From an uncultured Verrucomicrobiae bacterium (GTDB lineage: Bacteria; Verrucomicrobiota; Verrucomicrobiia; Chthoniobacterales; JAFAMB01), in contig CAWBYX010000028.1 of the NCBI GenBank assembly GCA_963793135.1, positions 119,886-183,885 on the forward strand: DNA of 64,000 bases. Reading direction: 5' to 3'. Positions 11,001 through 43,118 of the stretch are shown piece by piece; positions within the stretch are counted from its first letter, which is position 1; every line of letters starts with the position of its first letter. The position numbers were made by a program, and so were the translations under genes. The notes under the pieces are model-generated. The model saw nothing but the letters and a program-made list of their open reading frames with translations. It had not been told where the DNA came from and searched no databases.

Positions 11001-11521
11001 AAGTTTTCCGGTCCGAATATTTCGGCGAAATCGGCGGCGGATTTCTGTGCCTTACTCAGGTCGCCCGCCTGGATCGCCATATTGATTTCGCCTTTCAAGC
11101 AGGCGCTCATACCGATCAGTCCCTCGCTGTGCTTCGCGAGTAACTCTTTGTCGATCCGTGGCTTATAGTGGAAACCTTCGAGATGCGCGGCGGAGACGAG
11201 TTTCACCAGATTGTGATAACCGCGAAGGTTCTTTGCCAGCAGGGTGAAGTGGAAGGCGGCGTCGCGGGCAGATGAAGCGCTTTTGTCGATCATCGAGCCG
11301 GGTGCCATGTAGACTTCGCATCCGATAATGGGTTTTACGGCTGCCTTCTCGGCCGCCTGATAGAACTCGATCGCACCGTAAAGGTTGCCATGATCGGTCA
11401 TCGCCACAGCGGGCATCCCTAACTCGGCTGCCTTTTTCATCAGATCGGGTATCCGAATAGCGCCATCCAGGAGCGAGTATTCCGTATGAAGATGGAGGTG
11501 GACGAATGGGTCGGTCGACAT
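8099..11521 (-). CDS. dnaE: DNA polymerase III subunit alpha.
   Basis: 1140 aa. PHP domain at the N-terminus (FVHLHLHTEYSLLDGA), polymerase core (GLLKMDFLGLKTLT) and a C-terminal OB region. The reading frame is intact. Confidence 0.97.
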   Translation of the reverse strand: MSTDPFVHLHLHTEYSLLDGAIRIPDLMKKAAELGMPAVAMTDHGNLYGAIEFYQAAEKAAVKPIIGCEVYMAPGSMIDKSASSARDAAFHFTLLAKNLRGYHNLVKLVSAAHLEGFHYKPRIDKELLAKHSEGLIGMSACLKGEINMAIQAGDLSKAQKSAADFAEIFGPENFYLELHDHGLEAQHLCNRALLEISKKMELPLVAANDVHFLERSHHEAHDVMICIGTGSMVHDERRMHYPTEVYFKSAEEMRAIFRDLPEALTNTLRIAEACDLKLEFGVSKYPDYAPPEGKTREGYLRELCESGLRERYGDRAETDQELRQRLGYELSVLEKAGFVSYFLIVWDFIHYAKQHGIPVGPGRGSAAGSLAAYVLGITDLDPLRFELIFERFLNPERVSPPDIDVDFCQNRRGEVIEYVRRKYGARAVSQIITFGTLGAKSVVRDVGRVMGLSYSDGDRIAKMIPNELGITLKGAFEKNPELKQAVETEESTQQLWSYATVLEGLTRNTGIHAAGVVIGDRPLDNYIPLCRGNDDEVVTQYAMGPLTDLGMLKMDFLGLKTLTVLQDATALIRDRHPDFSLEALPLDDRPTFELLNRGETIGVFQLESGGMVNLCKQFDVNSIDDIIALIALYRPGPMELIPDYIKRKKGQTKIKYEHPLLKEVCANTYGIMIYQEQVQRAANVLAGYTLGQADLLRRAMGKKDKVKMAKERVNFIAGCARVNGIDEKKANAIFDLLEKFAGYGFNKSHSAAYGLISYRTAYLKANYPVEFMAGLLSNEVNNTDKIAVFVAECQRLGISILAPDVNRSHLKFVPETHAEQRGIRYGLAAIKNIGEAAMESAIIERQKNGPFKSVEDYCSRLDSKSVNRKILENLIRAGAFDFTGKDRAELFEGIDQALSAGASAHRDRRSGQVSLFGELEMAATPKANGDKVHFTPWSIAEKLGHERDLLGFYVTGHPLDAYRESIEGGGYTKISDLAEQEDKGTAKIAGSISAFDKKLTRKEGKPFAILTVEDFTGSVEVMVWGEVYAKAAKQIDKGRIVAITGKLDKREENIRIVANEIGPLNSRKSTKALTIDISMEKVDEERLIAIRDLVCQFPGAQPLYLRFHSLDGHEVRLKADPGYSVRDEEILRTKLTELLS

Positions 11522-11608
11522 TGGAACCTAACCTACCCGCTCCGGGCCTCTCCATCAACGGCGCGGGTTTGGCATTTCCGTATTTTGTGGCAGACTAGAG
11601 CCTCTCAA

Positions 11609-11690
11609 GCCGAGGTGGCGAAATTGGCAGACGCGCCAGACTTAGGATCTGGTGGAGCAATCCTTAGGGGTTCGAGTCCCCTCCTCGGTA
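11609..11690 (+). tRNA. tRNA-Leu, anticodon UAG.
   Basis: Hand-folded: acceptor gccgagg / cctcggt (G1-U72 wobble), anticodon stem ccaga/tctgg with loop cTTAGga, a long variable arm, T arm agggg-ttcgagt-cccct and discriminator A. No CCA is encoded. Confidence 0.85.
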
Positions 11691-11945
11691 AAGACTTACT
11701 CTGGAGAACTTCCTTCCTTGCCAGTTTACGGCAGCGGCAATTTTGCTATAACTAGACCGAATGGCATTTTGCTGGACTGGCTATTGCGGTTGCTGTTTAT
11801 ATTAAAAAGTGCGGATAATTTTGGAAATAACACTATTGAAGACGTCATCTCAAAAGGCGCAACTTAGGTTGGACCTTCACGAAGCCACGGCTAGAACTAT
11901 CTCGCCTTCAAACGGGGAAAGGTCTTTGATGCCGCAGGAGGCAAA

Positions 11946-12497
11946 ATGAAAATAGGACGGCACTTTGGAATTGCTCTTCTCGCCATCCTCGTGGTCGCCG
12001 GAGTTTCGTCTTGTTGTTCAATAAGAAGCTATCTGGCTTTTCGTGACATCGGGCCGGACGCAATATTCCAGCCAAAGGCTTCGTCGGTGTACGTGACGCT
12101 GATTTTGCGCAATATTTCGCCTTCTGCCGTTATCGATTGGAAAGTCGCGTCCGAACAAATGTGCACACATTCCACTGGCAGGATAAGAGGAGATATCGGG
12201 TCTTTTGAGCAGACCTGGGATATGGGCACTCCAGAACAGCGTATCTGGTTCTGGTGGGATACTTTGTGGGGCGAGGCTGACGCTACTGTCATGGTGAACA
12301 ACATCGTACTATTCCAAGGTCATTGCGTTAATTCTAGCTACGGCAAAGTCTCAATGATCGCGACGTGCATCGATCCTCAAGACTATAAGACGGGGGGTAC
12401 GGGACCTTTTCTCAAAGAGCCGATAGGCCTGAATGAAACCAATATCGTTTTCGCCACTTCGGGTCTGCCTCCGCGCTTCGGAACGATTGGCAACTAG
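11946..12497 (+). CDS. Hypothetical lipoprotein.
   Basis: Signal peptide plus Cys (MKIGRHFGIALLAILVVAGVSSCCS). I recognise no family. Confidence 0.5.
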   Translation: MKIGRHFGIALLAILVVAGVSSCCSIRSYLAFRDIGPDAIFQPKASSVYVTLILRNISPSAVIDWKVASEQMCTHSTGRIRGDIGSFEQTWDMGTPEQRIWFWWDTLWGEADATVMVNNIVLFQGHCVNSSYGKVSMIATCIDPQDYKTGGTGPFLKEPIGLNETNIVFATSGLPPRFGTIGN

Positions 12498-12640
12498 TGC
12501 TTAGTTGCCTGCTGACTAAGTAATGATCGAATAGCCGTTTCGAATGCGGGCGATACGGGGGCATGCCGATTTTCAGCGAAGCTTTTCATCTTGCCATCGC
12601 CGGTTTTTCCTGGTCAAAAGCGAAGACGCCCTTCAGCTCA

Positions 12641-13060
12641 ATGAACAGCAAGATCTTTCTTTTCCTCGTTTTATTTCTGATCGCAGGTTCCGGCTTTGCC
12701 GAAGATGCGATGAAATTCGTTTCGCCGGACAAGTCGACGACACTTGTGATAGACAAATCCGGCAAAAGAGACGTTGCCGAGTTGCAGTCCGGGAAGAGAG
12801 TGCATCGGCTCTTTTATGAGGATCTAGACTCCATTTTCAAGCCGAAGCTCGCGGAGGCGTTTGGCGCCTCTCTAGACAAAGTTGGGAAGATTGTGCTCCC
12901 GACATTTACCAGCGCGCGCTGGATCTCTGCAGACGAAGTGGAAATTAAAGGGGAATCAGTCGTGATCATTAACGACGGCGACGGTGATGAATTCACTTTT
13001 ACAGCGTCGGTTTCGAAGTCGGGCAACGTGAAACAGTTAACGGTGACTCCGAAGAAATAG
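12641..13060 (+). CDS. Hypothetical secreted protein.
   Basis: An internal Met gives a classical signal peptide (MNSKIFLFLVLFLIAGSGFAEDA). The ORF-track start at 12563 is probably too far upstream. Confidence 0.5.
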   Translation: MNSKIFLFLVLFLIAGSGFAEDAMKFVSPDKSTTLVIDKSGKRDVAELQSGKRVHRLFYEDLDSIFKPKLAEAFGASLDKVGKIVLPTFTSARWISADEVEIKGESVVIINDGDGDEFTFTASVSKSGNVKQLTVTPKK

Positions 13061-13160
13061 TGTCGGTGCCAGTGCCAGTGTCAGTGGGAATGGAAACGTG
13101 CCTGGAAAAGGCGCCTTTGCCCCTCATTTAAGGATCACTTTACCGCTGATCTCCGTGTTC

Positions 13161-13427
13161 TTACTCCAGATGATTTCTTTTTAAAATGCCTCTCAGCGTT
13201 TCGTTGAATTTCAATACGGCCTCGTCTTGCTCTTCGATCCGACTAAGACTCATAAAAAGGAGCTGCTCGCCGTGAGGTGAAGAGTTCACGAGATGCTTAA
13301 AAAGAGTCGCCAAATCTTTGACATCCGTTTCAAGTTGCCGAAGCCGCTCGCCGTAGTCGCCTGGCTCTTTTGGTTGCGATCCTTGGATCTGTTCCCAATC
13401 GTCCGATCGTTGCTTTTCTTCAGACAT
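13161..13427 (-). CDS. Hypothetical small protein (88 aa).
   Basis: An ORF with a balanced, charged composition. No family recognised. Confidence 0.3.
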   Translation of the reverse strand: MSEEKQRSDDWEQIQGSQPKEPGDYGERLRQLETDVKDLATLFKHLVNSSPHGEQLLFMSLSRIEEQDEAVLKFNETLRGILKRNHLE

Positions 13428-13512
13428 AGGCGCGAGTATGCCATTTCGGTAAGAGGTGGCAAAGCTGATTGGTGAGGTTTTATTGCGGAAAGCAGGTTAG
13501 AATCTTCGCCCG

Positions 13513-14017
13513 ATGAACCTGAACCGAGATCTTGAGATAATTGCAAAGCAGGAGCGGGAACTGGTGTTCCCTGAATTCGACGAAGAGACTGCCTGGAAGC
13601 TGGGATCGAGATTGCGCGAACTGGCGTTGGCCCGGCGGTTACCGGTAGCGATTGAGATAAAGCGAATTGGCCAACCGCTCTTCTACAGCGCCTATGGGCG
13701 GCAGCACTCCGGATAATGCGGAATGGGTAAGGCGCAAAGGTAACATCGTGGTGCGTTTCCACCGAAGTTCGTACGCGATCGGCTTAGAGCTGAAACGTAC
13801 CAACTCGACCCTGGCCGAAAAGTTCGAGCTCCCGTCGGCGGACTATGCCTCGCATGGTGGATCGTTCCCCTTGAAGGTGGCTGGAGCCGGGATAATCGGT
13901 TCCGTAACGGTATCCGGGCTCCCACAGCGGGCGGACCACGAGTTGGTGGTGGAAGTTCTTTGCGAACTGCTGGGGAGAGATGGCCTGGACTTTGCTTTAC
14001 CGAGCCAGGAAGAGTGA
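13513..14017 (+). CDS. UPF0303 / heme-degrading-domain (GlcG/HbpS-like) family protein, interrupted by one +1 frameshift near 13693.
   Basis: ORF 13513..13716 (..[44 protein letters not shown]) continues in the next frame as ..[55 protein letters not shown]. The 505-nt span equals 3n+1. Confidence 0.65.
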
Positions 14018-18500: not shown

Positions 18501-19425
18501 ATGACTAGAACATCCGGAATACGTAATGAATTCGAGATTTACGACGAGCGATTTCTTTATCTAACTCTTGGAAACGCCTGGGTCGAAAAGCTTCACACCG
18601 GCTCGCTTTGGGCTGAGGGCCCAGTTTATTTTGCAGATGGCGACTACCTGGTCTGGAGCGATATTCCAAACAATCGAATGCTGCGTTGGGCGGGCGGCCA
18701 AGTGAGCGTTTTTCGGGATTTTGCTAACAATAGCAACGGCAACACGCGTGACCGCCAGGGCCGTTTGGTCACCTGCGAGCACGGAGCCCGGCGGGTGACC
18801 CGAACGGAGCCGGATGGCACAGATCACGGTTTTAGTTGATCAATTCGAAGGCAAGAGGTTGAACTCTCCGAACGATGTCGTTGTCAAGTCGGACGGAACC
18901 ATCTGGTTCACTGATCCGCCTTACGGGATTTTATCCGACTATGAAGGGCATGTGGCCGAGAGCGAATATGGCGGTTGTTATGTTTTCCGTTTCGACCCGG
19001 TGACCGGAAATCTGGAGGCGGTGGTCAAGGATTTCAATAAGCCGAATGGGATTGCTTTTTCTCCTGATGAATCAAAGCTCTATATTGTTGATACCGGCGG
19101 TTCTCACTCGATGGACGGTGAACATCATATCCGGGCTTTCTCCGTCGACAATCAGGGCCGGCTAAGCGGAGGAGACCTCTTTGCCGAGGTATCGCCAGGT
19201 CTGGCAGACGGACTTCGCGTGGATCAGCAAGGTAATATCTGGACGAGCGCCGGAGATGGCGTGCACTGTTATTCCCCGGATGGGGTTCGGTTGGGAAAAA
19301 TCCTGGTACCGGAGCCGGTGGCAAATTTAACCTTTGGCGGTCCCAAAAGGAACCGGATCTTCATTACAGCCACCACTTCCTTGTACGCCGTCTATGTCGC
19401 GGCGACCGGAGCTCAACGTCCTTAG
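18501..19425 (+). CDS. SMP-30/gluconolactonase/LRE family protein, interrupted by one +1 frameshift near 18822.
   Basis: ORF 18501..18839 (..EGPVYFADGDYLVWSDIPNNRMLRW..GNTRDRQGRLVTCEHGARRVTRTEPDG) continues in the next frame as ITVLVDQFEGKRLNSPNDVVVKSDGTIWFTDPPYG. Confidence 0.85.
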
Positions 19426-21324: not shown

Positions 21325-21840
21325 TTGGGCAAGTTCTCCACACCCTTTGACGAATTTGAAGATCCGGGCCGGGGCGCACCCGCCGCCCGGCGCGGAAGAA
21401 TCGTGTATTGCCTGCAAGCTGGATTGCGCGGATTGAGTGTCGGCGCGCTTTGGGTGGCGATTCTGACCGCGGGCTTCCTGATCGCGCGCCACGCTCTTCC
21501 GTTGATGACGGGATCACAAGCCCCGATTTCTTTTAAGTCCGCCGTCCCTTTGATCGCGATCGGAATTTCGTACCTCGTTCTCATCCTCTCCCTGCGCCGC
21601 ACGCTGGGTCAACGTTTAGTCGGGATTTCTGTGGGATTGGCCTTTGTGCTTTGGGGATTGGAACAGTTCCTGAGGGATCAGGCATGGATTTCTTTTATTG
21701 ACGACGTGGTGGTCTTTCTCTTTGTCGCCGATCTGAGCATTGTCATCCGGCACAATCTCAAGAGTTGTGTGGGTGAACGCCAGGTTTCCAAAGCCTGCAC
21801 GGATGAGCTTAGTGGTCACGACGACAATTCCTCCGGATAA
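21325..21840 (+). CDS. Hypothetical membrane protein.
   Basis: Several hydrophobic segments. No family recognised. The 3' end overlaps an IstB-like relic. Confidence 0.35.
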   Translation: MGKFSTPFDEFEDPGRGAPAARRGRIVYCLQAGLRGLSVGALWVAILTAGFLIARHALPLMTGSQAPISFKSAVPLIAIGISYLVLILSLRRTLGQRLVGISVGLAFVLWGLEQFLRDQAWISFIDDVVVFLFVADLSIVIRHNLKSCVGERQVSKACTDELSGHDDNSSG

Positions 21841-22154: not shown

Positions 22155-22844
22155 ATGATTAAACGTCTCGGAAATCTGATCACGGGGTTTCTGCACTTGT
22201 TGACTGCTGCTTTGGAGGAAAGAAACCCCGATGTTTTGCTCGCTTTAGAGCAGGAAAATTTGCGCAAACAGCTCGGAAATTACAACCGCGGGCTATCAAC
22301 GCATGCCAGCTTGTGCGAGCGTCTTAATACGCAGGTCAAACGATTGGAGAACGAAGAGCGATCACTGCGCGTGCAAACTACGGTGCTTGTGCGGGGCGGA
22401 AAACGTCAAAAGGCAGGGGGCTTCGCCCTTCGACTGCAGACCGTCGAGAGAGATCTTCGGGAAAGCCGAGCCCAGTTGGCGCGCGCAGAGGAAGTTTATC
22501 GGGAACTGAGTAGGGCTCGAGACCGGTCATTCAAAGGGGCTCAGAGCCAGATTCAGGCGCTGCGTTTCGACTTGGACGATCTTAAGATCAGGCGCGCGAC
22601 CGCAGAGCTGACAGAAGCGGCTTCGGGATTAATCACGCAGATCGGCGGATCTGGTGACACGCTGAAGCGGTTGCAAGAACTGGTCGAAAACGAACGTGAC
22701 AGGGCTGCAGGCAAGGCGCGTATCGCCGGTGACGCAATGGCTTCCACGAGTTTTCAACTGGATGAGGCGCAACAAGAAGTACTGGCCGAACAGGCGCTAA
22801 CTGATTTTGAGCGAAATAGAAATAGCTACGAACTCAGAGGGTGA
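22155..22844 (+). CDS. pspA: PspA/IM30 family protein (phage shock protein A-like).
   Basis: 229 aa, entirely coiled coil, with a PspA-like N-terminus (MIKRLGNLITGFLHLLTAALEERNPDVLLALEQENLRKQL). Confidence 0.85.
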   Translation: MIKRLGNLITGFLHLLTAALEERNPDVLLALEQENLRKQLGNYNRGLSTHASLCERLNTQVKRLENEERSLRVQTTVLVRGGKRQKAGGFALRLQTVERDLRESRAQLARAEEVYRELSRARDRSFKGAQSQIQALRFDLDDLKIRRATAELTEAASGLITQIGGSGDTLKRLQELVENERDRAAGKARIAGDAMASTSFQLDEAQQEVLAEQALTDFERNRNSYELRG

Positions 22845-23013
22845 GAAAGCGAAGGGGAGAATTGGCTGCCGATAGCGCCAAGCAATCTGGAAAGAAACTA
22901 GAGTATTCGCTGTAATGCTACCTGAGCCTAGGCGTTAAGGGGTCCATCCGTAGTGCTTGCGCGAATAGGCTTTAAGGTTTAACGATCTGTTAGCTAGAAA
23001 GAGAGAGTCCGGA

Positions 23014-24746
23014 TTGGATATTTACCTGTCGTGCTTGCTCGGAGGGCTGGTTGCACTGGCAGCCTTTGTTTTGTGCGGGGCGGGGTTTCATCATCCGGGA
23101 GTTCACCACGGTGAGGCTTCCCCGGGGTATAACGGTCATGTTTCGGGCCATCACCACTCTTTGGATCGCTCAAACGCTGCCTCCAATGGCTGGTCGTCCT
23201 TTTCGATCTTGACATGGCTAAGCTGCCTCTCGCCGCTCTATCTTTGCGGCGCTGTTATTGGTTTTGGCGTTACAGGCACTTTGGTGGGGCACTTATTCCA
23301 AGGCTGGCCTTGTTTTGCGCTCGCTCTTCTGGGGGCTTACCTCACACGCATTATCTGTATTCGACCGCTGATTTCCGGGATTCTAATGTGGGCGTCACGA
23401 CCGGCGAGAACCCTGGGCGACGCCGTGCTTGAGACTGGGATTGCGGCAACCAATTTTGATGCAAACGGCTACGGCATGGTCAGGCTTTCTCTCGATGGGC
23501 AGATTGTCCAATTGCTGGGTCTGCTGGTGCCTGAGGAGTCGACCGCGCTTCGCGTTAATGCCGGGGAGAGACTTTTCATTCGCTCTGTCGACTCGGTAAG
23601 ACAACGATGCCGGGTGAGCCGAACGGCTGCGTTTCCGCTCGAGCCTCTGCCCGATAGCGCGCAAGAATTAGACGCAAAACCGCGCCGCGTCTGTCCGACT
23701 TGTGGTCATGTCTTTTCTGGGAACATGCAAGGCTGTCCGGTATGCCTGCTCCGGAAGGCTCTCGACCCCGATGTGGAGTTGATTGAAGCAGCAAACGCTG
23801 CGGCCGGTCAACCCATACCCGGATATCCAACCCAAAAATTTGAACATTATGAGCTCGTACGTGGGGCCGACGGGAAGCCGCTGGAGTTGGGTCGGGGAGC
23901 GATGGGTGTGACTTACAAGGCGTTTGATACCAGATTGAGTTGTCCCGTGGCACTAAAGGTTATTGGCGAAAGGTGCTTGGGAGACAATGGTGCCCAGTTC
24001 GCTTCCTGCGCGAAGCTCGCGCGGCAGCCAGTGTTCGACATCCGAACGTAGCTTCGGTCTTCCACCTGGGCAAAAGTGATCGAAACCATTTTTACGCGAT
24101 GGAGTTTGTCGAAGGCGAGACTTTAGAACGGCTAGTGAAACACTCAGGCCGGCTTCCAGTCAAACTAGCGCTCGAAATAGCACGACAGGTGAGCGCCGGG
24201 TTGGCCGCTGTGCACAAACAGAAGCTAGTGCATCGGGACATCAAACCGAGCAACATTATGGTGAACTTGGACGCAGAAGGCTCGGTGGTCGCCAAAATTA
24301 TCGATTTGGGCTTGGCAAAAGCAATGTATGAAGCGGGTTCTCAGGCCGGAGTCTCTGCGGCCGGAGCTTTTGTTGGAACGCCTGAGTTTTCCAGTCCCGA
24401 ACAGTTCGCCGGAGTTGGGGTCGATATCCGCTCTGATGTGTACGCTCTAGGCGCCACAGTTTGGTATATGCTGAGCGGAAAACCGCCCTTTGGCGGCACT
24501 GCCGCAGAGTTGATGTATCAGCATTTACATGCCCCGTTGCCAATTGAACTGTTGGGCCAGATCCCCCAACCGGTCTCCATTCTCCTTGCGGTGTTGCTCG
24601 AGAAGGACCCCGCCCTGCGCGTTCAGAGCCCGACGCAATTTCTAACTGCGCTACCGACGGTTATGGAAGCTATAGACTCCGGCAATCCTCTGACCCGTAT
24701 GAACCTGGAGACTCCAGCGGTTTTGGCTATTAGCCGTCCTCCTTAA
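23014..24746 (+). CDS. Fusion protein: YqiJ/NfeD-like polytopic membrane anchor with OB domain, Zn ribbon, and Hanks-type Ser/Thr protein kinase. One -1 frameshift near 24006.
   Basis: N-terminus: TM segments flanking a His-rich loop (HHPGVHHGEASPGYNGHVSGHHH), then an NfeD-C-like segment (GDAVLETGIAATNFDANGYGMVRLSLDGQIVQLLG..GERLFIRSVD). Zn ribbon: CPTCGHVFSGNMQGCPVC. Kinase: LGRGAMGVTYKA..VALKVI, then in another frame RFLREARAAASVRHPNVA..HRDIKPSNIMV..DLGLAK..GTPEFSSPEQ. Confidence 0.8.
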
Positions 24747-24785
24747 ACGCGAATTTAATCTGAACCTGGGGAGATAAACAGAAAG

Positions 24786-26063
24786 GTGGGACGTATGCTT
24801 AATATCACAATAATAATCGGCTTGATCGTCTTAGTGGCGGTAGCCGTCCCGCTCACCATCACCGCTTTCCTAAAGGATGTTGAGGCCGGCTCCATCCGGT
24901 TGGTAACCTGGTGGCGCGGTAGTATGAAGATCTACCGTGGACCCGGCAAATGCTACGAGGTGCCATTGCTGACTAACGGAACGACTATCTCCAGCAAAGT
25001 GATCAACGTAGATCTCGATATCACTGATCAGACGGCGGACGTCGATTCCTCGGGGATTCCAAACCCCATCAAGGTCCGAGTCCTTGCCAGCGCCATTGTA
25101 TCGGTCGGCGACAGCGACGAGTTAATCAAGACTGCAGCAAACCGCTTTTTTGCCAAAAGTAATGATGAGCAAATGGCCGCCCTAACGGATTTACTCTCAT
25201 CGTCCGGACGTCGTGCCGTTAACCTTTTGACGCACGATCAATTATTTAGCGCCAAATCCAGCGTTGGTAAAACTCACTTGCCAGGTGGTTCAGAGGACCA
25301 TTCCTTATTGCGTGTTACGGTTGCCGCGGAAGAAGATGATGATCCCTTGGCGATTATAATTCGCAAAGCTGGCTCCCGCGAGCTTACAGATCTCGGCCTG
25401 GTCTTCAACTCCCTTAACATCAAAGTCGTCCAAAGCGAAGTGGCGGATGCACGGCGGCGTCAATCTGCAGCCGAAGCGACTGCCAATGCGGATATTGTTG
25501 CGGCCAATCAAACCCGGCGCGCCAAGGAGGCGCAACTGGACGCGGAGCGATCGATTTCTGATAAGCAAAGAGAACTGGAGCAGACCCGCTTGGGGAACGC
25601 AGTGTTAATTGCTGAAGCGGAGGCCAAGCTTCAAGATGCTTTGGCGCGACAGAAGGCGAGCGAATTAAAAGCAACTCAGATCGCGCAAGCCAACGCTGAC
25701 TCCGAAGCGGTCGAGATTGCAGCCGAAGCCCGGGCAGGACAGATTCGCAAGATAGCTCAGGCGATTAAGGAGGGGGGCGAGCAATTCCTGCGATACCGCC
25801 AGATTGAGATGCTGCCAGACATTGCTCCGGCAATTGCGCAGGCCTTGGCTCAGGCGAAGCTAATAACTGTACATAGTGGCGCTGAAGGTGGTGATGCCGC
25901 CTCCGCAACAACTGATTCGATTACCAGCGTTGTCCGCACCGTACTTGCAGCACAAATCATAGGTCGCAATGGACTATTCGAAACGTCCGAGGAAACCTCG
26001 TCGAAGCACGACGGTCTTGGCGTCACCTCGAATATTGGGGGCGAAAGGATTCTTCACTCCTAA
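24786..26063 (+). CDS. Flotillin-like SPFH/band-7 protein (YqiK/FloT-like).
   Basis: N-terminal TM segment, an SPFH region, and a long Ala/Glu-rich flotillin-type coiled coil (RRRQSAAEATANADIVAANQTRRAKEAQLDAER...AEAEAKLQDALARQKA...). GTG start at 24786 or ATG at 24795. Confidence 0.85.
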   Translation: MGRMLNITIIIGLIVLVAVAVPLTITAFLKDVEAGSIRLVTWWRGSMKIYRGPGKCYEVPLLTNGTTISSKVINVDLDITDQTADVDSSGIPNPIKVRVLASAIVSVGDSDELIKTAANRFFAKSNDEQMAALTDLLSSSGRRAVNLLTHDQLFSAKSSVGKTHLPGGSEDHSLLRVTVAAEEDDDPLAIIIRKAGSRELTDLGLVFNSLNIKVVQSEVADARRRQSAAEATANADIVAANQTRRAKEAQLDAERSISDKQRELEQTRLGNAVLIAEAEAKLQDALARQKASELKATQIAQANADSEAVEIAAEARAGQIRKIAQAIKEGGEQFLRYRQIEMLPDIAPAIAQALAQAKLITVHSGAEGGDAASATTDSITSVVRTVLAAQIIGRNGLFETSEETSSKHDGLGVTSNIGGERILHS

Positions 26064-26187
26064 ATTGGAGCACGGGGCTTGTGTCTCTCAGCTTGCCTTT
26101 TCGAGCGGCGATACGGCACAAGCTTTATACGGCTCCTCGTTCTGCAAATGCGAATGACAGGTTTTTTGGTTGTGTCGGTAATGCCCT

Positions 26188-26955
26188 ATGAACAGCGATG
26201 AAGACGCTCCTGCAGAACGAGAGGCCAGCTTTCAGCCCACGCACTGGACACTCGTTCTCAAGGCGGCTCAAAGCAACACGCCCGGTGCAGCCGGTGCCTT
26301 GGGCGAGTTGTGCCAACTTTACTGGTATCCGCTCTATGTATTTGCTCGCCGCAGGGGCCGGTCTCCCGATGACGCCAAAGATCTCACCCAAGGCTTTTTT
26401 CTTCTACTACTCGACAAACGGGTACTAACGGCAGTTGATCGGCAAAAGGGTAAATTCCGCTCGTTTTTGCTGACCACGTTTCAACATTACATTTCAGGGG
26501 AGTTGGACCGTGCCCGCGCTCTGAAGCGTGGAGGCGGTTGTGAGTTCGTCTCGCTTGACTTTCAGTGCGCAGAGGGCCGCTACAAGCAAGAGCCGGCGGA
26601 CAAAACGATCACGGCCGAGCAACTTTTTGATGCCAGGTGGGCTTTAACCTTGCTGAGCCGGGCGATGAATTTGCTGCGTCAGGAATACGTTGTTCAGGGC
26701 CGCGCGGAGACTTTTGAAATCTTGAAAATATTTCTTCAGAATGGCGACACCCCTCCCTCCTACGAAGCCGCCGCAGGTGCTCTGTGCCTTGGACTTGGAG
26801 CAACCAAAACGCTCATTCACCGCCTGCGTAAGCAATACACCACGATTTTGCGAAAAGAGATTGCCCGCACCGTGTCTGATCCAGAGGAGGTGGAAACGGA
26901 AATCCATGCATTGTGCGAAGCACTCATTGCTTCCAAAGGCCAGTTGGACCCGTGA
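26188..26955 (+). CDS. ECF-type sigma-70 family RNA polymerase sigma factor (long-linker type).
   Basis: Region 2-like sequence: LYWYPLYVFARRRGRSPDDAKDLTQGFFLLLLD. Region 4 HTH: SYEAAAGALCLGLGATKTLIHRLRKQY. Confidence 0.8.
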   Translation: MNSDEDAPAEREASFQPTHWTLVLKAAQSNTPGAAGALGELCQLYWYPLYVFARRRGRSPDDAKDLTQGFFLLLLDKRVLTAVDRQKGKFRSFLLTTFQHYISGELDRARALKRGGGCEFVSLDFQCAEGRYKQEPADKTITAEQLFDARWALTLLSRAMNLLRQEYVVQGRAETFEILKIFLQNGDTPPSYEAAAGALCLGLGATKTLIHRLRKQYTTILRKEIARTVSDPEEVETEIHALCEALIASKGQLDP

Positions 26956-27051
26956 CGAACCTATCGCTCGTCCACATCGTTCAGTTCTGTCGGCTGAACA
27001 TAGTTGTCAGTTCTCAGTGTCAGTTGCCACTGGAGACGGAGAGTCGAGAAA

Positions 27052-27203
27052 TCACCGTAGCTCCACTCCTGAGAGGCGTTTGCAAGTCTCGATCAGGCTT
27101 TCTTGCAGCTCTGCATCGGAGGTTTGTCGTTTCGGCGTGCGAAGCTGCATATGATAAAAATACTGGCCAGAAACCGCCGCGCGCGCCTCATCACTGACTG
27201 CCA
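27052..27203 (-). pseudogene. SDR-family oxidoreductase, C-terminal fragment (separated from its 5' part by the IS21-family insertion).
   Basis: ..AVSDEARAAVSGQYFYHMQLRTPKRQTSDAELQESLIETCKRLSGVELR*. It joins in frame to ..TQVWLAVS at 30665 across the 8-bp duplication. Confidence 0.85.
27196..27203. repeat. Target-site duplication, left copy (GACTGCCA).
   Basis: An identical octamer is at 30665-30672. Both copies lie inside the split SDR reading frame. Confidence 0.85.
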
Positions 27204-27313
27204 TGAGAGCGGTGGCGTCAAAATCGGATAAAACCAATGATTTTAAAATCGGATGGTGGATTGGGGTATGTAACGACAACGGTCGCTGTGGTTTCCGAAA
27301 AGGGGGGCGGTTG

Positions 27314-28066
27314 TCAGCTTTCGATGCGGTCTTTCATGCGGTAGCTGGAGCCTTCGATTAAAACGGTTTCGGCGTGGTGGAGGAGACGGTCGAGTACGGC
27401 GGAGGTGATAGTGCTATCACCGTTGAAGATGGTAGCCCACTGTTTGAAGGCTTTGTTGGAGGTAAGTACGATAGAACCGCGTTCATAGCGTTGGCTGATG
27501 ACCTGGAAGAGCAGATCGGCTCCGCGCTGGTCGATGGGAAGATAGCCGATCTCGTCGAGGAGCAGCAGCGCGGGTGAGAGATAGCGTTTGAGCTCGGATT
27601 TGAGCACGCCTTTAGTCTGGGCGGCACTCAAGGTGTTAATCACGTCGATAGCGTTGGCGAACAGGACGCTATAGCCGTGCTGGCACGCGGCATAGCCGAG
27701 TGCTGTGGCCAAGTGAGTTTTGCCGAGGCCAACCAGACCCAGGAAAATAACGTTGGCTTTCTCTTCGATAAAACTAAGCCGGAAGAGGTCCTGGATCTGG
27801 AGCCGATTGATTTTTTTGGGCCAGTCCCAACGGAAGCCTTCCAGGGTCTTGATGACTGGAAAACGGGCGGCTTTGATTCGCCGAGCAATCGTGCGCTGTT
27901 GACGTGCCGCGACTTCGCCCTGAAGGAGTCGACCCAGGTAGTCGAGATGGCTCCAGTGGTTGGCGGCGCTTTCGACAGCCAAGGGTTGGCAGTTTTCTTT
28001 GACACAAGTCAACTTGAGGTAATCAAGGTGCTCATTGAGCAAGAGGTCGGCAGGATTTCTAGTCAT
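27314..28066 (-). CDS. istB: IS21-family helper ATPase IstB.
   Basis: Walker A LGLVGLGKTHLATALG, Walker B LLLLDEIGYLP, C-terminal TSNKAFKQWATIF..LDRLLHHAE. The true start is the ATG at 28066 (MTRNPADLLL..), overlapping the istA stop by 8 nt. The ORF-track start at 28297 is an artefactual extension. Confidence 0.92.
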   Translation of the reverse strand: MTRNPADLLLNEHLDYLKLTCVKENCQPLAVESAANHWSHLDYLGRLLQGEVAARQQRTIARRIKAARFPVIKTLEGFRWDWPKKINRLQIQDLFRLSFIEEKANVIFLGLVGLGKTHLATALGYAACQHGYSVLFANAIDVINTLSAAQTKGVLKSELKRYLSPALLLLDEIGYLPIDQRGADLLFQVISQRYERGSIVLTSNKAFKQWATIFNGDSTITSAVLDRLLHHAETVLIEGSSYRMKDRIES

Positions 28067-29969
28067 GGTTTGGGCACGATGGGGATGGTGTCTGTGAGCC
28101 TTCGTAGACGGAGAGATCGGGCTGCTCGAGTTCGACCTCGAGCAGATCTTGGCGCCTGGTGAGGTGGAGCGGGCCGGGCTGAGGGCTGAAGCGCTCGCGT
28201 TGTTGGAGGATGTTAGCGATATAGTCGCTGCTGAAGGCCTGGAACTCGAAGGAGTCTTCGATGGCGCGAGCGATTTTGTCGCAGCCATGAACCTCACTTA
28301 AAGCCATGATCTTGGCAATGTGTTGACGGGGGTTAAGGCGGTGGATCTTAAGCTGGAGGTAATACTCTTCGGCACGGGGACAGAGGCCAAAGAAGCGCAG
28401 CAGCAGTTTGGCGTCGCGTGCTGCACGGCGCTGATCGAGCAGTTCCTTGCCGTGCTCGGGATCTTCGAAGTCCTGGTGCCGGTCGTAGCTGCGGGTGTGG
28501 GTGGCGATCAGCTTCTCGCCGTGGTAGATGCAGAGCCGATCGGCAAAGGTTTTGAGTAGCAAAGGCTGGGAAGCATAAAGGCTGGGAACCGAATAGCGGT
28601 TGGTATCCAAGACCACACGGAAGCGGCTGCTGGTCGGTACAGTCCGGATGACTCCGGTGTCGGCGGGAAGCGGCGGCAACGCGTTCAAATGCGGCTTTTC
28701 CAGTGCGAAGAGTTCGATCGGTTGTTTGTGCGTTTCCCCGTGAATGCGGACATTGGCAACCGTATCCATCCAGTGGCGTGCAGCAGTGTTCAGTGCGTTC
28801 AAGCCGGGAGGCAGTTGCAGGCCGTCGAGGAAATTTTTCTTTACGTACCCGACACCGGATTCCACACGGCCTTTTTCGTTTGGCCTTCGCACGTTACAAG
28901 CACGCGGCTCGAAGCCGTAGTGTGCTGCAAAGTCCAGGTAGCGCGGATGAAAGAGCGGCCGTTCTCCAGCAGGATGCTTGAGCACAGCGGTCTTAGGATT
29001 GTCGATGAGAATTTTGGTCGGAACGCCGCCGAAAAACTCCAAAGCGTTCTGGTGAGCGGCCAGGAAGTGCTCCGTCGCTTCGCCCAGGGTAAACTCGACA
29101 TAGCACAATCGGCTGTAGCAAAGCACCATGACAAAGAAGGAGAGCCGTCGGCGAGTTGAGCCAATTGCCATCGAGCCGGCGCAGCCCCAATCGACTTGCG
29201 CGCATTCGCCCGGAGCGAACACCAGGGTCAGGAAAGCTGGCGCGCGCACGGGCCGCACTCGACGCACATAGTCTGTGAGGATGGAGATTCCGCCGGTATA
29301 AGCCTGCTCGGCACGCAGTCGTTGGAAGATTTGCGCGGCGCTATACGGATGCTGCTCCAACCAGCGCTGAATGATTGGCTTGTAAGGATCGAGCTTGCTC
29401 TTTCGCCGGGCTCTGAGGTGCTGGCAGTAGGTCTTCTGGCGCGCCCACTTTGCTACCGTCTCTTCATCGAGGTTCAACTCACGGCCGATCTGGGCAAAGC
29501 TTAAACCACGCTCCTTGTAGTAGAGCTGGATTTGACAATAAAGCTCGTAAGAGATCACGGCGAGCGGCTGCTGCTGCGCTCCTCCGGTCTCCAACATCTG
29601 GCGCAAAATCGCGCTGATGGGAAGCGTCTGGCCGGAGCGCGCAACGGGTGGTTCACTGGTCGAGGTCGGTTCCAGGCTCAAGACTTGGTAGAGCGGAGAT
29701 TCGTAAGCAATCAGACCCGCTGCCAGCAAACTGCACCGAGCCTCGCGCAACTGGGCTTCATTGAGCGAGAGCAACCGTGCCGCGGTCTTATCGGAGTAGT
29801 AACTTAAACCCTGCGCATCGGCCACCGTGACCAAGAGCAGGTAAAGCGCCAGCGCTTGAGGACCACACCGGGCGATGTGGCCATCGCGCACCAGCCGTTG
29901 ATCGATCCAACTAAAGCGGTGCGGCACATGGCGCAGCCGTTCCGGACAGAGTACCCGTTTGGTTATCAT
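28059..29969 (-). CDS. istA: IS21-family transposase IstA with a ~125-aa N-terminal winged-helix-like extension.
   Basis: HTH ERGLSFAQIGRELNLDEETVAKWARQ, and a DDE integrase core (..ECAQVDWG..., VLCYSRLCYVEF, ..LIDNPKTAVL.., RRPNEKGRVESGVGYVKKNF). The N-terminal 125 aa (HRFSWIDQRLVRDG..ALALYLLLVTVADAQGLSYYSDKTAARLLSL..GLIAYESPLYQVLSL) are in frame with no stop. Confidence 0.9.
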   Translation of the reverse strand: MITKRVLCPERLRHVPHRFSWIDQRLVRDGHIARCGPQALALYLLLVTVADAQGLSYYSDKTAARLLSLNEAQLREARCSLLAAGLIAYESPLYQVLSLEPTSTSEPPVARSGQTLPISAILRQMLETGGAQQQPLAVISYELYCQIQLYYKERGLSFAQIGRELNLDEETVAKWARQKTYCQHLRARRKSKLDPYKPIIQRWLEQHPYSAAQIFQRLRAEQAYTGGISILTDYVRRVRPVRAPAFLTLVFAPGECAQVDWGCAGSMAIGSTRRRLSFFVMVLCYSRLCYVEFTLGEATEHFLAAHQNALEFFGGVPTKILIDNPKTAVLKHPAGERPLFHPRYLDFAAHYGFEPRACNVRRPNEKGRVESGVGYVKKNFLDGLQLPPGLNALNTAARHWMDTVANVRIHGETHKQPIELFALEKPHLNALPPLPADTGVIRTVPTSSRFRVVLDTNRYSVPSLYASQPLLLKTFADRLCIYHGEKLIATHTRSYDRHQDFEDPEHGKELLDQRRAARDAKLLLRFFGLCPRAEEYYLQLKIHRLNPRQHIAKIMALSEVHGCDKIARAIEDSFEFQAFSSDYIANILQQRERFSPQPGPLHLTRRQDLLEVELEQPDLSVYEGSQTPSPSCPNHD

Positions 29970-30475
29970 CGTGAGAATGCGTCGTTGTGACTCCAGAGCC
30001 TCCTGCCGAGGATGTCCTGGCCTTTGCTTAGCAGCGCCCGGGTGGTCGCCGCGATGTCCTCTTGTAACGCACTACCAGTCATCATGGAGATAAGTCCCAC
30101 CATCACAGCAGGTTGCATCACCAAGACATCTTGTAACGCATCGGAGATCTCTATTCTTTTAACTTCCTCATCCTGAGCTACTTGAGTCGCACAGAGATCT
30201 TGTAACGGTTCTCGGGGTAGAGGGCTCTTTTTGCGCCAGTACCCGGGATTGCGTTTTCGCCACTCTTTGACACGCTGGCTATTTTGCGGCCCGCTGAAGT
30301 AGTTTTGGTTGTCCGGTTTTTGTGCCCAGCGGCGCTGACTTTCCGCTTTGCTCTGTCTGCGACAGGCAGGTTCTGCGCAGTAGCGCTGATGATGCAAATT
30401 GCGTCGATCCGGCAGATAGAACTCCTTGCAATGCTGGCACTTCCGCCGCGCAGAACACTTCATCGGCAAACTCAA
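29966..30475 (-). CDS. IS-associated Cys-rich (putative zinc-ribbon) protein, 169 aa.
   Basis: MSLPMKCSARRKCQHCKEFYLPDRRNLHHQRYCAEPACRR... (C-x4-C-x2-C ... C-x4-C). Its stop overlaps the istA start by 4 nt, and it lies inside the TSD-bounded element. Confidence 0.65.
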   Translation of the reverse strand: MSLPMKCSARRKCQHCKEFYLPDRRNLHHQRYCAEPACRRQSKAESQRRWAQKPDNQNYFSGPQNSQRVKEWRKRNPGYWRKKSPLPREPLQDLCATQVAQDEEVKRIEISDALQDVLVMQPAVMVGLISMMTGSALQEDIAATTRALLSKGQDILGRRLWSHNDAFSR

Positions 30476-35778: not shown

Positions 35779-37043
35779 GGCGTTCGGCGTTCAGCGTTAA
35801 CCCGACGCGGAACTCGCCCTACCTGCCACCCGATGTTCACCGGAGACCATCAAAGATCGATAACGATAACGAGCACGAGGACGAGGACGATTGGGGAAGA
35901 AAGAGGGGCTTAGGTAGGGTGAGGCTCCGTCCGAACCGGGGCTTCCTGGTTGCCCTGCCCTAGGACTTAAGCCCCTCTAAGTCAGCCGCCCTGAGCGAAT
36001 CGGCACGCCTATACCAATTGTCGGTGTCAAGCGCTGCATACACCCGATCGAAGAGCGTCATGTGGGTTAACGTCATAAGGCGGGTAGACGCGGGAAGCCC
36101 CGGTTCGGGCGGAGCCTCACCCTACCTAAACGTCGCGTATCTTCCACCCGAGTTCTGACCGGCGACGATCAAAGATCGATAACGATAACGAGCACGAGCA
36201 CGAGGACGATTGGGGAAGAGAGAGGGGTTTAGGTAGGGTGAGGCTCCGTCCGAACCGGGGCTTCCCGGGTTGCCTTGCCCTACGACTTCGCCCCCTGTAA
36301 GTCAGCCGCCGGAGCGAATCGAAGAATCGGAGCGCCTAATTGCTGAAAGAACCGATGCCGGACGAACGGCCCACGTTGCTGTAGGCAAGTTGCAGCAGGT
36401 ACCAAAATCATCTGACCTGTCCCCAATACCACATGTCCCCAATACGACATACGACGGATCGAAAAGCGTCGTGGGGGTTCACGTCATAAGGCAGGTAGAA
36501 GCGGGAAGCCCCGGTTCGGGCGGAGCCTCACCCTACCTAAACGTCGCGTATCTTCCACCCGGCTTCTGCCCGGGGACGATCAAAGATCGAGAACGATAAC
36601 GAGCACGAGCACGAGGACGATTGGGAAGAGAGAGGGGCTTAGGTAGGGTGAGGCTCCGTCCGAACCGGGGCTTCCCGGGTTGCCCTGCCCTATGACTTCA
36701 CCCCCTATAAGTCAGCCGCCTGAGCGAATCGGAGAATTGGAGCGCCAAATTGTCGAAAGAACCGATGCCAGACGAACGGCCGACGTTGCTGTAGGCAAGT
36801 TGCAGCAGGTACCAAAATCATCTGACCTGCCCTCAATGCGACATACGGCCCGATCGAGAAGCTCGTGTGGGTTCACGTCATGAGGCAGGTAAACGCGGGA
36901 AGCCCCGGTTCGGACGGAGCCTCACCCTACCTAAGCGTCACCTAGCTTCCACCCGGCTTCTGCCCGGCGACGATTAAAGAGCGAGAACGAGGACGAGCAC
37001 GATTGGGGAACAGAGCGAAGGGCGGCGAGCGTCGCACCCTACC
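35779..37043. repeat. Complex ~1.27-kb repeat array of three hairpin-type units, each being a hexamer-periodic motif, a 35-nt arm, a 150-240-nt loop and the inverted arm. Partial units lie at both edges.
   Basis: Forward arms (taggtagggtgaggctccgtccgaaccggggcttcc) are at 35911-35945, 36230-36264 and 36650-36684. Inverted arms (ggaagccccggttcgg[g/a]cggagcctcaccctaccta) are at 36093-36128, 36504-36539 and 36898-36933. The loops of units 2 and 3 are about 90% identical. Confidence 0.9.
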
Positions 37044-38481
37044 GAGGCAAGAGACCAACCGCGACCTGCGGAAAAATGCCCAAAACAAAGATAAGTCCCA
37101 CCATGATCCACATGGCGACGAGAGAGAGTCGGCTGACCGGAATCGCGGTGGCGTCTACCGGTACGGGCTGCCAATACATCGCCCTGACCACCTTCAGATA
37201 GAAGTAGAAGCCGCAACCGACCGTCAGGATGCCGAGAGCGATCAGGAAAAAGTGGCCGGTTTCAAAGGCCACCTTGAAGACGAGAAACTTCCCGAGAAAC
37301 CCGGCGGTCAACGGAACACCGGCGAGCGACATCATGGCGACTAGAAGACCAAAAGCCAGGAACGGAGAACGTTTTCCTAGACCATTAAAATGAACGATGT
37401 CGTCGCCGTCGGCATGATTACTGACGATCACCAGGATCAGAAACGAGAGGAGTGTCATCAAGAGATAAGCGGCAAGATAGACGACCACGGCCAGTCCGGA
37501 ATCCATTGCACCGATTGCCGCCACTGCAATTAGCAGATAACCGGCATGACCGATACTGGAATAGGCCAGAAGGCGCTTGAAGTTCGTCTGAGGCAATGCC
37601 GCGAGATTGCCGTAAAGCAGGGTGGCCGCGGCCAAGAGTGTAATCGCGGTGATCAACTTGTTTCCGACAGACGGGAGAGTTTGAAAGGCTAGGACGACTC
37701 GCAGCAGCACGATAAATCCGACCGATTTAGAACCGACGGAGAGAAAGGCGGTGATCGGAGTTGGTGCACCCTGGTAAACATCGGGAACCCAGAACTGAAA
37801 TGGCGCAGCCGCTATCTTGAATCCGAGACCGACCAGGACCAGGAGAGCGCCAAAAAGAAGGCCAGGCTGATTATCGAGGGGAATGGAAGAAAGGACCTGC
37901 TTTATCTGCGTGAGATTGGTCTGCCGCGTGACGCCGTAGATCCAGGTAATCCCGTAAACGGTGAAACCGGTAGAAAGGGCGCTCAGGATCAGATATTTAA
38001 CACCCGCTTCCAGCGAAGCGGCGTTCCTGCGCATGAAAGGCACCAGGACATAGAAAGAAATGGTGACCAGCTCCAGGGAGACGAAAATCAGGATAAAGTC
38101 GATCGCCGATGCCATCCACATCATCCCTGCGCAGGTGAGTACCGGGAGAGCGAAAAATTCGCCCAGACCGGATTGAGGGGAACCGCCGGGCAAATAGCGT
38201 TTGATCGTGTCGGCGTAATCAATCGACATGATGAGCACAACAATCGTCGTCACGACGGCGACTTTCTTGAAGAAAATCGCCGGCCAATCGATCGTGTAAG
38301 AGAGCATCCCGCTTTCGCCAGGGACAGTTACCTGGAGAAACAAGAAGACGACGGCTAATCCGACGATTCCGATAATCGCAAAGATTTTCCGGTCCTGCTT
38401 TTCGGCAAACGATTCCAGCACCAGAATCACGATTCCCAGCGCGAGCACGAATAATTCTAGTAAAACGGGAGGGATTGTCAT
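37039..38481 (-). CDS. nuoN: NADH-quinone oxidoreductase subunit N.
   Basis: 480 aa, polytopic, last gene of the nuo run. Overlaps the nuoM stop by 4 nt. Confidence 0.88.
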   Translation of the reverse strand: MTIPPVLLELFVLALGIVILVLESFAEKQDRKIFAIIGIVGLAVVFLFLQVTVPGESGMLSYTIDWPAIFFKKVAVVTTIVVLIMSIDYADTIKRYLPGGSPQSGLGEFFALPVLTCAGMMWMASAIDFILIFVSLELVTISFYVLVPFMRRNAASLEAGVKYLILSALSTGFTVYGITWIYGVTRQTNLTQIKQVLSSIPLDNQPGLLFGALLVLVGLGFKIAAAPFQFWVPDVYQGAPTPITAFLSVGSKSVGFIVLLRVVLAFQTLPSVGNKLITAITLLAAATLLYGNLAALPQTNFKRLLAYSSIGHAGYLLIAVAAIGAMDSGLAVVVYLAAYLLMTLLSFLILVIVSNHADGDDIVHFNGLGKRSPFLAFGLLVAMMSLAGVPLTAGFLGKFLVFKVAFETGHFFLIALGILTVGCGFYFYLKVVRAMYWQPVPVDATAIPVSRLSLVAMWIMVGLIFVLGIFPQVAVGLLPR

Positions 38482-41744: not shown

Positions 41745-41747
41745 TCG

Positions 41748-42065
41748 TTAGAATTTCAAAGTGTTCATGTCCTCGACATGGGTAGTTTGTCGGGCCCGGA
41801 AAAGGGCGACGATGATGGCCAGCCCGACGGTCACTTCGGCGGCAGCGACGGTGATGATAAAAAACGCCAGCACCTGTCCGTTATAGTCCGGGAGGCCGTC
41901 ATGGACATTGTATCTTGAAAATCCAATCAGGGAGAGATTGGCTGCATTGAGCATCAGCTCCAGGGCCATGAAAATGATGATCACGTTCCGGCGGAGCAAT
42001 ACCCCGGCGAAGCCGATGGCAAATAAGAGGCCGCTGGCAATCAGATAGTCATTAAGCGTTACCAT
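41748..42065 (-). CDS. nuoK: NADH-quinone oxidoreductase subunit K.
   Basis: 105 aa with three TM segments, in the operon between nuoJ and nuoL. Confidence 0.88.
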
Positions 42066-42067
42066 GG

Positions 42068-42571: not shown

Positions 42572-42575
42572 TCGG

Positions 42576-43106: not shown

Positions 43107-43118
43107 GGTTCTAACTCG

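Follow-up and report, generated by a model that had tools for sequence, protein, structure and literature searches.

A Hanks-type kinase fused to an NfeD-like membrane anchor in a four-gene locus of uncultured soil Verrucomicrobia

Introduction

What input does a bacterial protein kinase receive when its catalytic domain is joined to the membrane partner of a flotillin-like protein? The question is raised by a locus in an uncultured Verrucomicrobiae bacterium, found within a 64,000-nucleotide stretch of contig CAWBYX010000028.1 that is here called the window. At positions 22155-26955, four co-directional genes on the + strand encode a PspA/IM30-like protein, a fusion of an NfeD-like anchor with a Zn ribbon and a Hanks-type Ser/Thr kinase, a flotillin-like membrane protein, and a sigma factor of the extracytoplasmic function (ECF) type. 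The listing of open reading frames (ORFs) bears out the arrangement that a sequence-only reading of the window had reported, with short intergenic gaps of 169, 39 and 124 bp.

The favored answer, held with slightly better than even confidence, is that the locus represents a clade-specific joining of two known two-gene units, an NfeD/flotillin-like pair and an ECF sigma/kinase cassette, in which a signal would pass from scaffold to kinase to sigma factor. A more specific claim is that a Hanks kinase takes its sensory input from the NfeD/flotillin-like scaffold and phosphorylates a dedicated ECF-type sigma factor directly. This is put forward tentatively, with a chance somewhat short of even.

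Conservation of the Fusion

The fusion gene (23014..24746, +) starts at a TTG codon and encodes 577 amino acid residues once one base is restored at about position 23997. The same four genes, in the same order and with an intact fusion of 577-583 residues, are present in the related contigs L168-L171, L172 and L175. The fusion has 581 residues in L172 and 583 in L175, and in L168 the gene runs from position 5220. In these relatives it begins at a conserved TTG or GTG codon at 'DIYLSCL'. Nucleotide identity is 93-97% for L168-L171, 87% for L172 and about 84% for L175. Since L175 keeps the four genes amid entirely different flanking genes, they travel as a unit. The fusion is confined to a narrow clade of uncultured soil Verrucomicrobia, a Chthoniobacterales-like lineage to judge by its best matches.

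As it stands in the window, the kinase gene is read as two overlapping ORFs (23014-24051 and 23940-24746, +). The relatives read GCC CAG GTT CGC TTC (AQVRF) where the window has GCCCAGTTCGCTTC at about 23997, so that the G of CAGGTT is lost at 23996..23997 (+) in the window copy only. Use of the corrected kinase is justified because the relatives read CAGGTT where the window reads CAGTT. The corrected protein contains every motif that had been quoted for it earlier, namely GRGAMG, ALKV, HRDIKPSN, DLG, GTPEFSSPE and CPTCGH..CPVC.

The missing base is probably an assembly error, the most economical account, because the relatives are intact and scattered 1-nt indels occur in other genes of the window and of related assemblies. 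A pseudogene specific to this strain could also explain it. A comparable break is seen in an SGL (gluconolactonase-like) gene at 18501-19425, where a 1-nt insertion at 18821 leaves ORFs of 112 and 203 residues. The gene is intact (307 residues) in L002, L168 and L171, and its splitting therefore suggests an error-prone assembly.

Selection was estimated from the ratio of nonsynonymous to synonymous substitution rates (dN/dS) between L168 and L172, for which dS is about 0.5. The ratio is 0.15 for the NfeD part, 0.23 for the linker and Zn ribbon and 0.17 for the kinase domain, beside 0.08 for the flotillin-like protein and 0.13 for the sigma factor. The fusion, which the sequence-only reading had proposed from the window alone, is thus found intact in relatives and is under purifying selection, at a dN/dS of 0.17. 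A fusion kept by selection suggests that the NfeD partner and the kinase work together.

Might the locus instead be a recent accident of rearrangement, already decaying and without integrated function? Several features are of the kind that such a history would leave: the kinase frameshift in the window, the shortened 3' end of its pspA gene, an adjoining IS21 element, a frameshifted pspA in L172, the restriction of the fusion to a narrow clade, and a deletion variant. In L002 and L003 (10001-10642), an in-frame deletion joins window position 23241 to 26541, leaving NfeD codons 1-76 followed by sigma codons 119-255. Half of the sigma gene is lost in this way, along with the kinase and the flotillin-like gene, and microhomology at the junction is only 1 nt. 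Because of this deletion, the frameshift in the window kinase and the IS21 element just downstream, the module is judged dispensable in some strains. However, dN/dS stays between 0.15 and 0.23 across all parts of the fusion at a dS of about 0.5, and the fusion is intact in seven contigs of at least three lineages, one of them in a different genomic context. The single-base indels, moreover, are spread over differing genes in each assembly, which is the pattern expected of assembly errors. A functionless accident is therefore considered very unlikely.

The NfeD-like Anchor

The first 205 residues of the kinase (23014..23628, +) were modeled with AlphaFold2 (AF2) from an alignment of 21 sequences. 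The predicted layout is a first transmembrane (TM) helix at residues 3-22, a His-rich loop at 25-56 that is disordered in the model, TM2 at 60-91, TM3 at 98-128, and a five-stranded OB barrel at 141-203. The mean predicted local distance difference test score (pLDDT) is 75.8, and exceeds 90 in the barrel. When the model was compared with the PDB by Foldseek, the top three matches were all NfeD proteins: YbbJ in the E. coli QmcA-YbbJ complex (8z5g, E=2.7e-4), B. subtilis YuaF (2k14) and P. horikoshii 1510-C (3wwv). Generic OB folds such as IF1 rank after these three. For 1510-C the TM-score is 0.76 on the target and the root-mean-square deviation is 2.4 A.

Searches by sequence gave little. No Pfam match of any kind, the NfeD models PF01957 (C-terminal) and PF25842 (NfeD_TM) included, was obtained up to E=10 for residues 1-226, nor any for five homologues; PF25842 has a faint precomputed match on P0005 and P0007. 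The profile of the NfeD-like family found nothing among PDB sequences. An earlier suggestion that the anchor resembles YqiJ (DUF1449) found no support by sequence, since hhalign of the anchor-family alignment A2 against E. coli YqiJ gave E=0.1 and a probability of 0.6% over 27 columns in the OB region.

Standalone homologues of the anchor are about 218 residues long, with 36-58% identity, and stop just past the beta-rich segment. They carry no Zn ribbon. By its predicted fold and by its pairing with a flotillin-like gene, the N-terminal region of the kinase is identified as an NfeD-like domain, so that the general NfeD likeness noted earlier is supported by the structural comparison.

The His-rich loop (window 23086-23181) recurs, at varying length, between TM1 and TM2 of every NfeD-like partner in the family. 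It may bind metal.

The NfeD/Flotillin-like Pair

The flotillin-like protein (24786..26063, +) has 425 residues when read from a GTG codon; relatives are called from an ATG corresponding to 24795, which gives 422 residues. From the N-terminus on, it has a TM helix, a divergent region that is putatively SPFH, a long coiled coil (residues 207-341) and lastly a C-terminal motif of flotillin type. The match to NCBIfam FloT (E=3.8e-11) falls in the C-terminal half, with residues 208-385 aligned to positions 290-455 of 477 in the profile. All 37 members of the family match FloT, the best at E=7e-16, with every score far under the equivalog cut-off. A weak profile match to flotillin-2 in the PDB (E=0.013-0.05) spans the non-repetitive terminal motif LPxIAxxIAxxL...SG. 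The JGI annotation of these proteins is 'flotillin'.

The N-terminal half is less clear. Pfam Band_7 matches neither the window protein nor its 36 relatives. The AF2 model, built from an alignment of 37 sequences, has a pLDDT of 57 overall and below 50 over residues 31-209, and because of this its Foldseek matches are meaningless. An hhalign comparison with E. coli YqiK is weak (E=0.003, probability 10%), with the first 108 columns and the N-terminal TM helix falling in register. The protein is accordingly accepted from its sequence matches as flotillin-like, with a putative SPFH domain. Of the SPFH/flotillin identity proposed at the outset, a flotillin-like C-terminal half is borne out (37/37 for FloT) and the SPFH half stays putative (0/37 for Band_7).

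An exhaustive search of 1.84 billion representative proteins returned 296 matches to the flotillin-like family at E<=0.001. Among the matches listed (150 of the 296), most look like fragments from this one family, and none forms a bridge to canonical flotillins. The family is isolated and extremely conserved, with at least 60% identity across Verrucomicrobiota, Gemmatimonadota and Abditibacteriota.

How constant is the partnership with NfeD? With the flotillin-like alignment as query and one genome per species, 376 encoding stretches were found, of which the best 80 were examined together with five earlier loci. These belong to Chthoniobacterales and other Verrucomicrobiota, to Gemmatimonadota, to Abditibacteriaceae and to Longimicrobium. 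In 83 of the 85 loci the gene next upstream of the flotillin-like one is NfeD-like, and the other two are cut by contig ends. None of the NfeD-like genes in these surveyed loci is fused to a kinase.

In seven of the 85 loci (L004, L044, L060, L066, L073, L074 and L077), an unrelated Hanks kinase of 577-1300 residues and 33-42% identity is encoded in the same direction as the pair and no more than about 2.5 kb from it, with at least three arrangements among the loci. Within the flanks of 8 kb on either side of the pair loci, kinases occur nowhere besides those adjoining the pair. This recurrence is suggestive of a link between the pair and kinases, in loci that are not phylogenetically independent of one another.

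Some smaller features of the pair loci may be recorded here. One of the unrelated kinases has LRR and TPR domains, and in L066 a YiiD_C thioesterase gene sits between pair and kinase. In several loci an ORF of about 160 residues lies directly 3' of the flotillin-like gene.

The Kinase and Sigma Factor Cassette

The catalytic domain of the fusion (residues ~291-553; 23884..24671, +) matches Pfam Pkinase at E=7e-37 and an NCBIfam PknB-type model over residues 291-553. The Hanks motifs GRGAMG, the Lys of ALKV, HRDIKPSN, DLG and SPE are all present, given the 1-nt correction in the window copy. The N-terminal neighbor of this domain is a four-Cys Zn ribbon, CPTCGH-X10-CPVC, at residues 224-243 (23683..23742, +). 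The fusion kinase has no C-terminal sensor region.

When metagenomes were scanned with the corrected kinase, 80 loci came back. The scan missed the closest fusion-bearing contigs, which were reached through protein searches with the flotillin-like protein and PspA. The 80 kinases align from about residue 215 on, that is, over Zn ribbon and kinase, at 38-72% identity. On the window, homology to the kinase family begins at 23665-23692. No NfeD, flotillin-like or PspA gene is found at any of the 80 loci.

The Zn ribbon lies directly N-terminal to the kinase in 48 of the 80 metagenome loci, all without NfeD, and is thus the native N-terminus of cassette kinases. Because cassette kinases that lack NfeD carry it and standalone NfeD-like partners do not, the ribbon came with the kinase and not, as had been supposed, from a YdjG-like gene.

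Cassette kinases are 950-1200 residues long and have the order Zn ribbon, Hanks kinase, NACHT/AAA_16, and WD40 or TPR. Judged from this comparison, the kinase of the window's clade has lost the NACHT/WD40/TPR tail and gained an NfeD anchor. A search for remnants of the STAND tail in the window and its relatives found none.

The NACHT STAND modules of the paralogous cassette kinases also bear on an anti-phage function, in which PspA and the flotillin-like protein would sense membrane damage and a defense-type kinase would respond by abortive infection. The kinase domain does match the PADLOC models for the PD-T4-6 and MADS6 kinases. These matches, however, span only the generic Hanks catalytic domain, and PspA, the flotillin-like protein and the sigma factor have none. 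The neighbors are housekeeping genes (PBP1A, SGL, dehydratase) and not a defense island. A defense system is thus highly improbable.

The sigma factor (26188..26955, +) has 255 residues. Alone it scores below threshold in Pfam and NCBIfam, and its identity follows from its family of 11 members, where Sigma70_r2 is matched by 11, Sigma70_r4_2 by nine and PF07638 Sigma70_ECF by two. Against the PDB, the family profile matches region 4 of SigW, SigE and SigH. On these family-level matches it is classed as a divergent ECF-type factor, with sigma2 and sigma4 regions joined by a long linker. In sigma2.2 the window protein reads DAKD and the L175 protein DAED; most of the family has DAQD there. Near the N-terminus, an F-x-T-T-x-W motif containing Thr17/Thr18 is invariant across the family. 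No anti-sigma-like ORF is present around 26188-27300, as the sequence-only reading had observed.

Where does this sigma factor belong? A homologue (39-61% identity) lies directly upstream of 21 of the 59 related kinases that have upstream sequence, often with overlapping stop and start codons; the other 38 have no adjacent sigma gene. Conversely, essentially every full-length sigma homologue has a cassette-type kinase next downstream. By these matches, the sigma factor and the Zn ribbon plus kinase both derive from a widespread cassette of an ECF sigma factor and a Ser/Thr kinase. Because the sigma family is so tightly paired with this kinase family and no anti-sigma gene is present, a link from kinase to sigma factor is plausible, the signaling itself being a proposal.

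The same figures also bear on an account in which the kinase acts mainly locally. Tethered to the scaffold, it would phosphorylate PspA, the flotillin-like protein or raft clients for membrane repair, and the sigma factor would be a passenger or one of several substrates. The fusion of the kinase to the scaffold's partner and the adjacent pspA fit this account, as do the unrelated kinases that adjoin the same pair without this sigma factor in 7/85 loci and the 38/59 related kinases without a sigma gene beside them. Against it stand the almost exclusive occurrence of the sigma family beside this kinase family, and the retention of the sigma gene (dN/dS 0.13) in every intact relative, including L175 with its other flanks. 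Mainly local action is regarded as unlikely.

The cassettes show some further variety. In L090, L098, L103, L108, L109, L114, L117, L118, L120 and L135-L154, a sigma gene of about 226-256 residues is immediately followed by the kinase, and in some cassettes two or three kinases stand in tandem after the sigma gene. L098, L103 and L167 have in common the motif CTTGAAATC-NN-TGATTTRAA-N11-CTGATA, partly palindromic and about 30-75 nt before the sigma start. It could be a promoter or an operator. The motif CTTGAAATC-NN-TGATTTRAA-N11-CTGATA is absent from the window locus, and so does not speak for control of pspA by the sigma factor. A scan for promoters and terminators counted no more sites than in shuffled sequence.

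The PspA Gene

The first gene of the locus (22155..22844, +) encodes a coiled-coil protein of 229 residues. Its match to PF04012 is sub-threshold (E=1e-4, 22.3 bits against a cut-off of 33.9) and nearly full-length, with residues 3-220 on profile positions 4-216 of 220. More than 100 homologues, 58-65% identical to it across 95% of its length, carry PF04012 and are named PspA/IM30 at NCBI. Through these homologues its membership of the PspA/IM30 family, as first proposed, can be taken as safe. The N-terminus, MIKRLGNLITGFLHLL, looks amphipathic when its letters are read. No useful match came from single-sequence searches of the PDB, whether with PspA, with the flotillin-like protein or with the sigma factor.

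The 3' end of the window gene is about 99 bp shorter than in relatives, which encode 273-289 residues, and in L172 the gene is frameshifted. PspA does not regularly accompany the NfeD/flotillin-like pair: a PspA hidden Markov model run over 87 loci of the pair matches only in the window's clade and in L012, in which pspA comes after the flotillin-like gene.

The nearest PspA paralogues (61% identity, from Chthoniobacterales; L176-L178, 6001-8410) directly precede a gene for an AAA ATPase of 552 residues. This arrangement is reminiscent of ESCRT-III with Vps4.

A Proposed Model for Scaffold-Dependent Signaling

NfeD proteins bind SPFH partners, as seen in the QmcA-YbbJ structure 8z5g, and SPFH proteins assemble into large membrane-attached oligomers. 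In the proposed joining of the two units, the Zn ribbon and catalytic domain of a cassette kinase are fused to the C-terminus of an NfeD-like protein, in place of the cytoplasmic sensor tail that such kinases have. The sigma gene that belongs with the kinase follows the flotillin-like gene, and pspA stands in front. The NfeD part would dock the kinase onto an oligomeric flotillin-like scaffold on the cytoplasmic side of the membrane.

A shift in how the scaffold assembles, or in the state of the membrane, would then alter the proximity of the kinase domains and their autophosphorylation. The active kinase may phosphorylate the sigma factor, for which the invariant Thr17/Thr18 are candidate sites, and the sigma factor would drive a membrane-stress regulon, possibly including pspA. 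Two parts of this scheme have precedents. PspA can be recruited by an SPFH protein via membrane anchors (PMC8581546), and in the kinase-linked groups ECF sigma factors become active on phosphorylation (PMC8999054). The locus suggests that the state of a membrane scaffold is signaled directly to transcription.

A number of observations weigh against this model. The kinase frame is broken in the window copy, an IS21 element stands just downstream, and a population represented by L002 and L003 has deleted most of the module. The scaffold protein is only putatively an SPFH protein, Band_7 being unmatched and the model falling below 50 pLDDT in that region. The sigma factor keeps the acidic residues in sigma2.2, unlike ECF43, so that the EcfP mechanism may not apply. 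Nor is it translationally coupled to the kinase; its gene lies beyond the flotillin-like one, at a distance of 124 bp. The sigma factor and pspA are not linked by any shared promoter motif, and PspA adjacency is rare for the NfeD/flotillin-like pair.

If the model is right, SPFH-NfeD complexes, whose function is unclear, could be membrane-state sensors wired to transcription. The unrelated kinases that recur beside the pair in Gemmatimonadota and Verrucomicrobiota would in that case represent one pathway in unfused form. The fusion gives a testable hypothesis on the role of NfeD-SPFH/flotillin pairs, running from scaffold or membrane state through kinase to sigma factor. It also illustrates the exchange of kinase input domains within the ECF/kinase class, a STAND/repeat tail being swapped for a membrane anchor, and it points to a very conserved flotillin-like family, undetected by Pfam, in at least three phyla.

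Comparison with Known Systems

Linkage of PspA, SPFH and NfeD proteins is known from B. subtilis and other phyla (PMC8581546, PMC9239133, bioRxiv 10.64898/2026.02.06.704340). In the B. subtilis pspA-ydjGHI (samGHI) operon, as in the window, the gene for PspA is accompanied by genes for a membrane anchor and for an SPFH/flotillin-like protein, and there is a tie to an ECF sigma factor, the operon being sigmaW-dependent. The B. subtilis system, however, is without a kinase, and its sigma factor is encoded outside the operon under anti-sigma control. In the window, the Zn ribbon belongs to the kinase family and not to a YdjG-like gene, PspA is only rarely linked to this type of NfeD/flotillin-like pair, and the flotillin-like protein has an N-terminal TM helix of its own. 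The model agrees with a role recently proposed for the B. subtilis PspA-YdjGHI complex, that of a sensor of membrane stress with an effect on transcription (PMC8581546; bioRxiv 10.64898/2026.02.06.704340).

ECF sigma factors encoded with a Ser/Thr kinase and no anti-sigma factor form the groups ECF43, ECF59-62, 217 and 283 (PMC8999054, PMC7826278). Signaling from kinase to sigma factor with no anti-sigma gene, as first suggested for the locus, is thus of a kind already described; the input module is what is new. That a co-encoded kinase directly phosphorylates the sigma factor has been shown for EcfP/PknT of Vibrio parahaemolyticus and EcfK/PknS of Xanthomonas citri (PMC8999054, PMC13147305). 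ECF59-62, 217 and 283 are predicted kinase-linked groups (PMC8999054, PMC7826278).

The window sigma factor resembles these in lacking an anti-sigma gene and in its genomic coupling to a Ser/Thr kinase, and its cassette relatives stand immediately upstream of theirs. Unlike ECF43, where the DAED motif is lost in favor of phosphorylatable Ser/Thr, the window family keeps DA(K/Q/E)D, and for this reason the charge-restoration mechanism of ECF43 is not implied. In this respect the family resembles the kinase-linked groups other than ECF43 (PMC8999054). The gene order is inverted in the window, with the flotillin-like gene separating kinase and sigma factor, and the kinase input is an NfeD anchor instead of a periplasmic or STAND/repeat domain.

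The pair itself may be compared with YbbJ-QmcA, YqiJ-YqiK, YuaF-FloT and Pyrococcus 1510-C/stomatin. In each case a short NfeD protein, with TM helices and a C-terminal OB barrel, is encoded directly upstream of an SPFH/flotillin-type gene. The window family differs in having no sequence match to Pfam NfeD or YqiJ and in its His-rich loop between TM1 and TM2. The partner, putatively an SPFH protein, belongs to a family of its own that is very conserved and has no Band_7 match, and in the window's clade the NfeD protein bears a kinase.

Finally, the STAND-tailed Hanks kinases of Planctomycetota, Verrucomicrobiota and Acidobacteriota share a Zn ribbon and catalytic domain 55-72% identical to those of the window. 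The window kinase differs from them in having no STAND/repeat tail and in its N-terminal membrane NfeD module. PspA-SPFH-NfeD neighborhoods and ECF/kinase pairs being already known, the new element is the grafting of a cassette kinase onto the NfeD partner together with the relocation of the sigma gene. A literature search, incomplete in coverage, found no report of an NfeD-kinase fusion.

Neighboring Genes

The genes around the module are housekeeping genes, among them those for PBP1A, SGL and a dehydratase. Between the dehydratase gene and pspA, at 21325-21840, lies an ORF for a predicted multi-TM protein of 171 residues with no match in Pfam or NCBIfam. Close relatives keep it as an ORF of 148 residues, and L172 has an IstB gene at this place.

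The IS21-family element lies on the minus strand near the 3' side of the sigma gene, with istA at 28059-29969 and istB at 27314-28297. Together with an ORF of 169 residues it occupies window 27314-30475, where relatives have about 4.8 kb after the sigma gene. In L168 this segment (9176-13997) contains a gene for 232 residues along with DoxX-like, Crp-family and VCPO-like genes.

Farther along, at 36001-44000, AT skew in the window is strongly positive (+0.15 to +0.28) over a region where successive genes lie on the minus strand. Synteny with L002, where membrane genes of the Proton_antiporter_M type are annotated, makes it probable that these genes are of that type, which would suggest an effect of codon composition.

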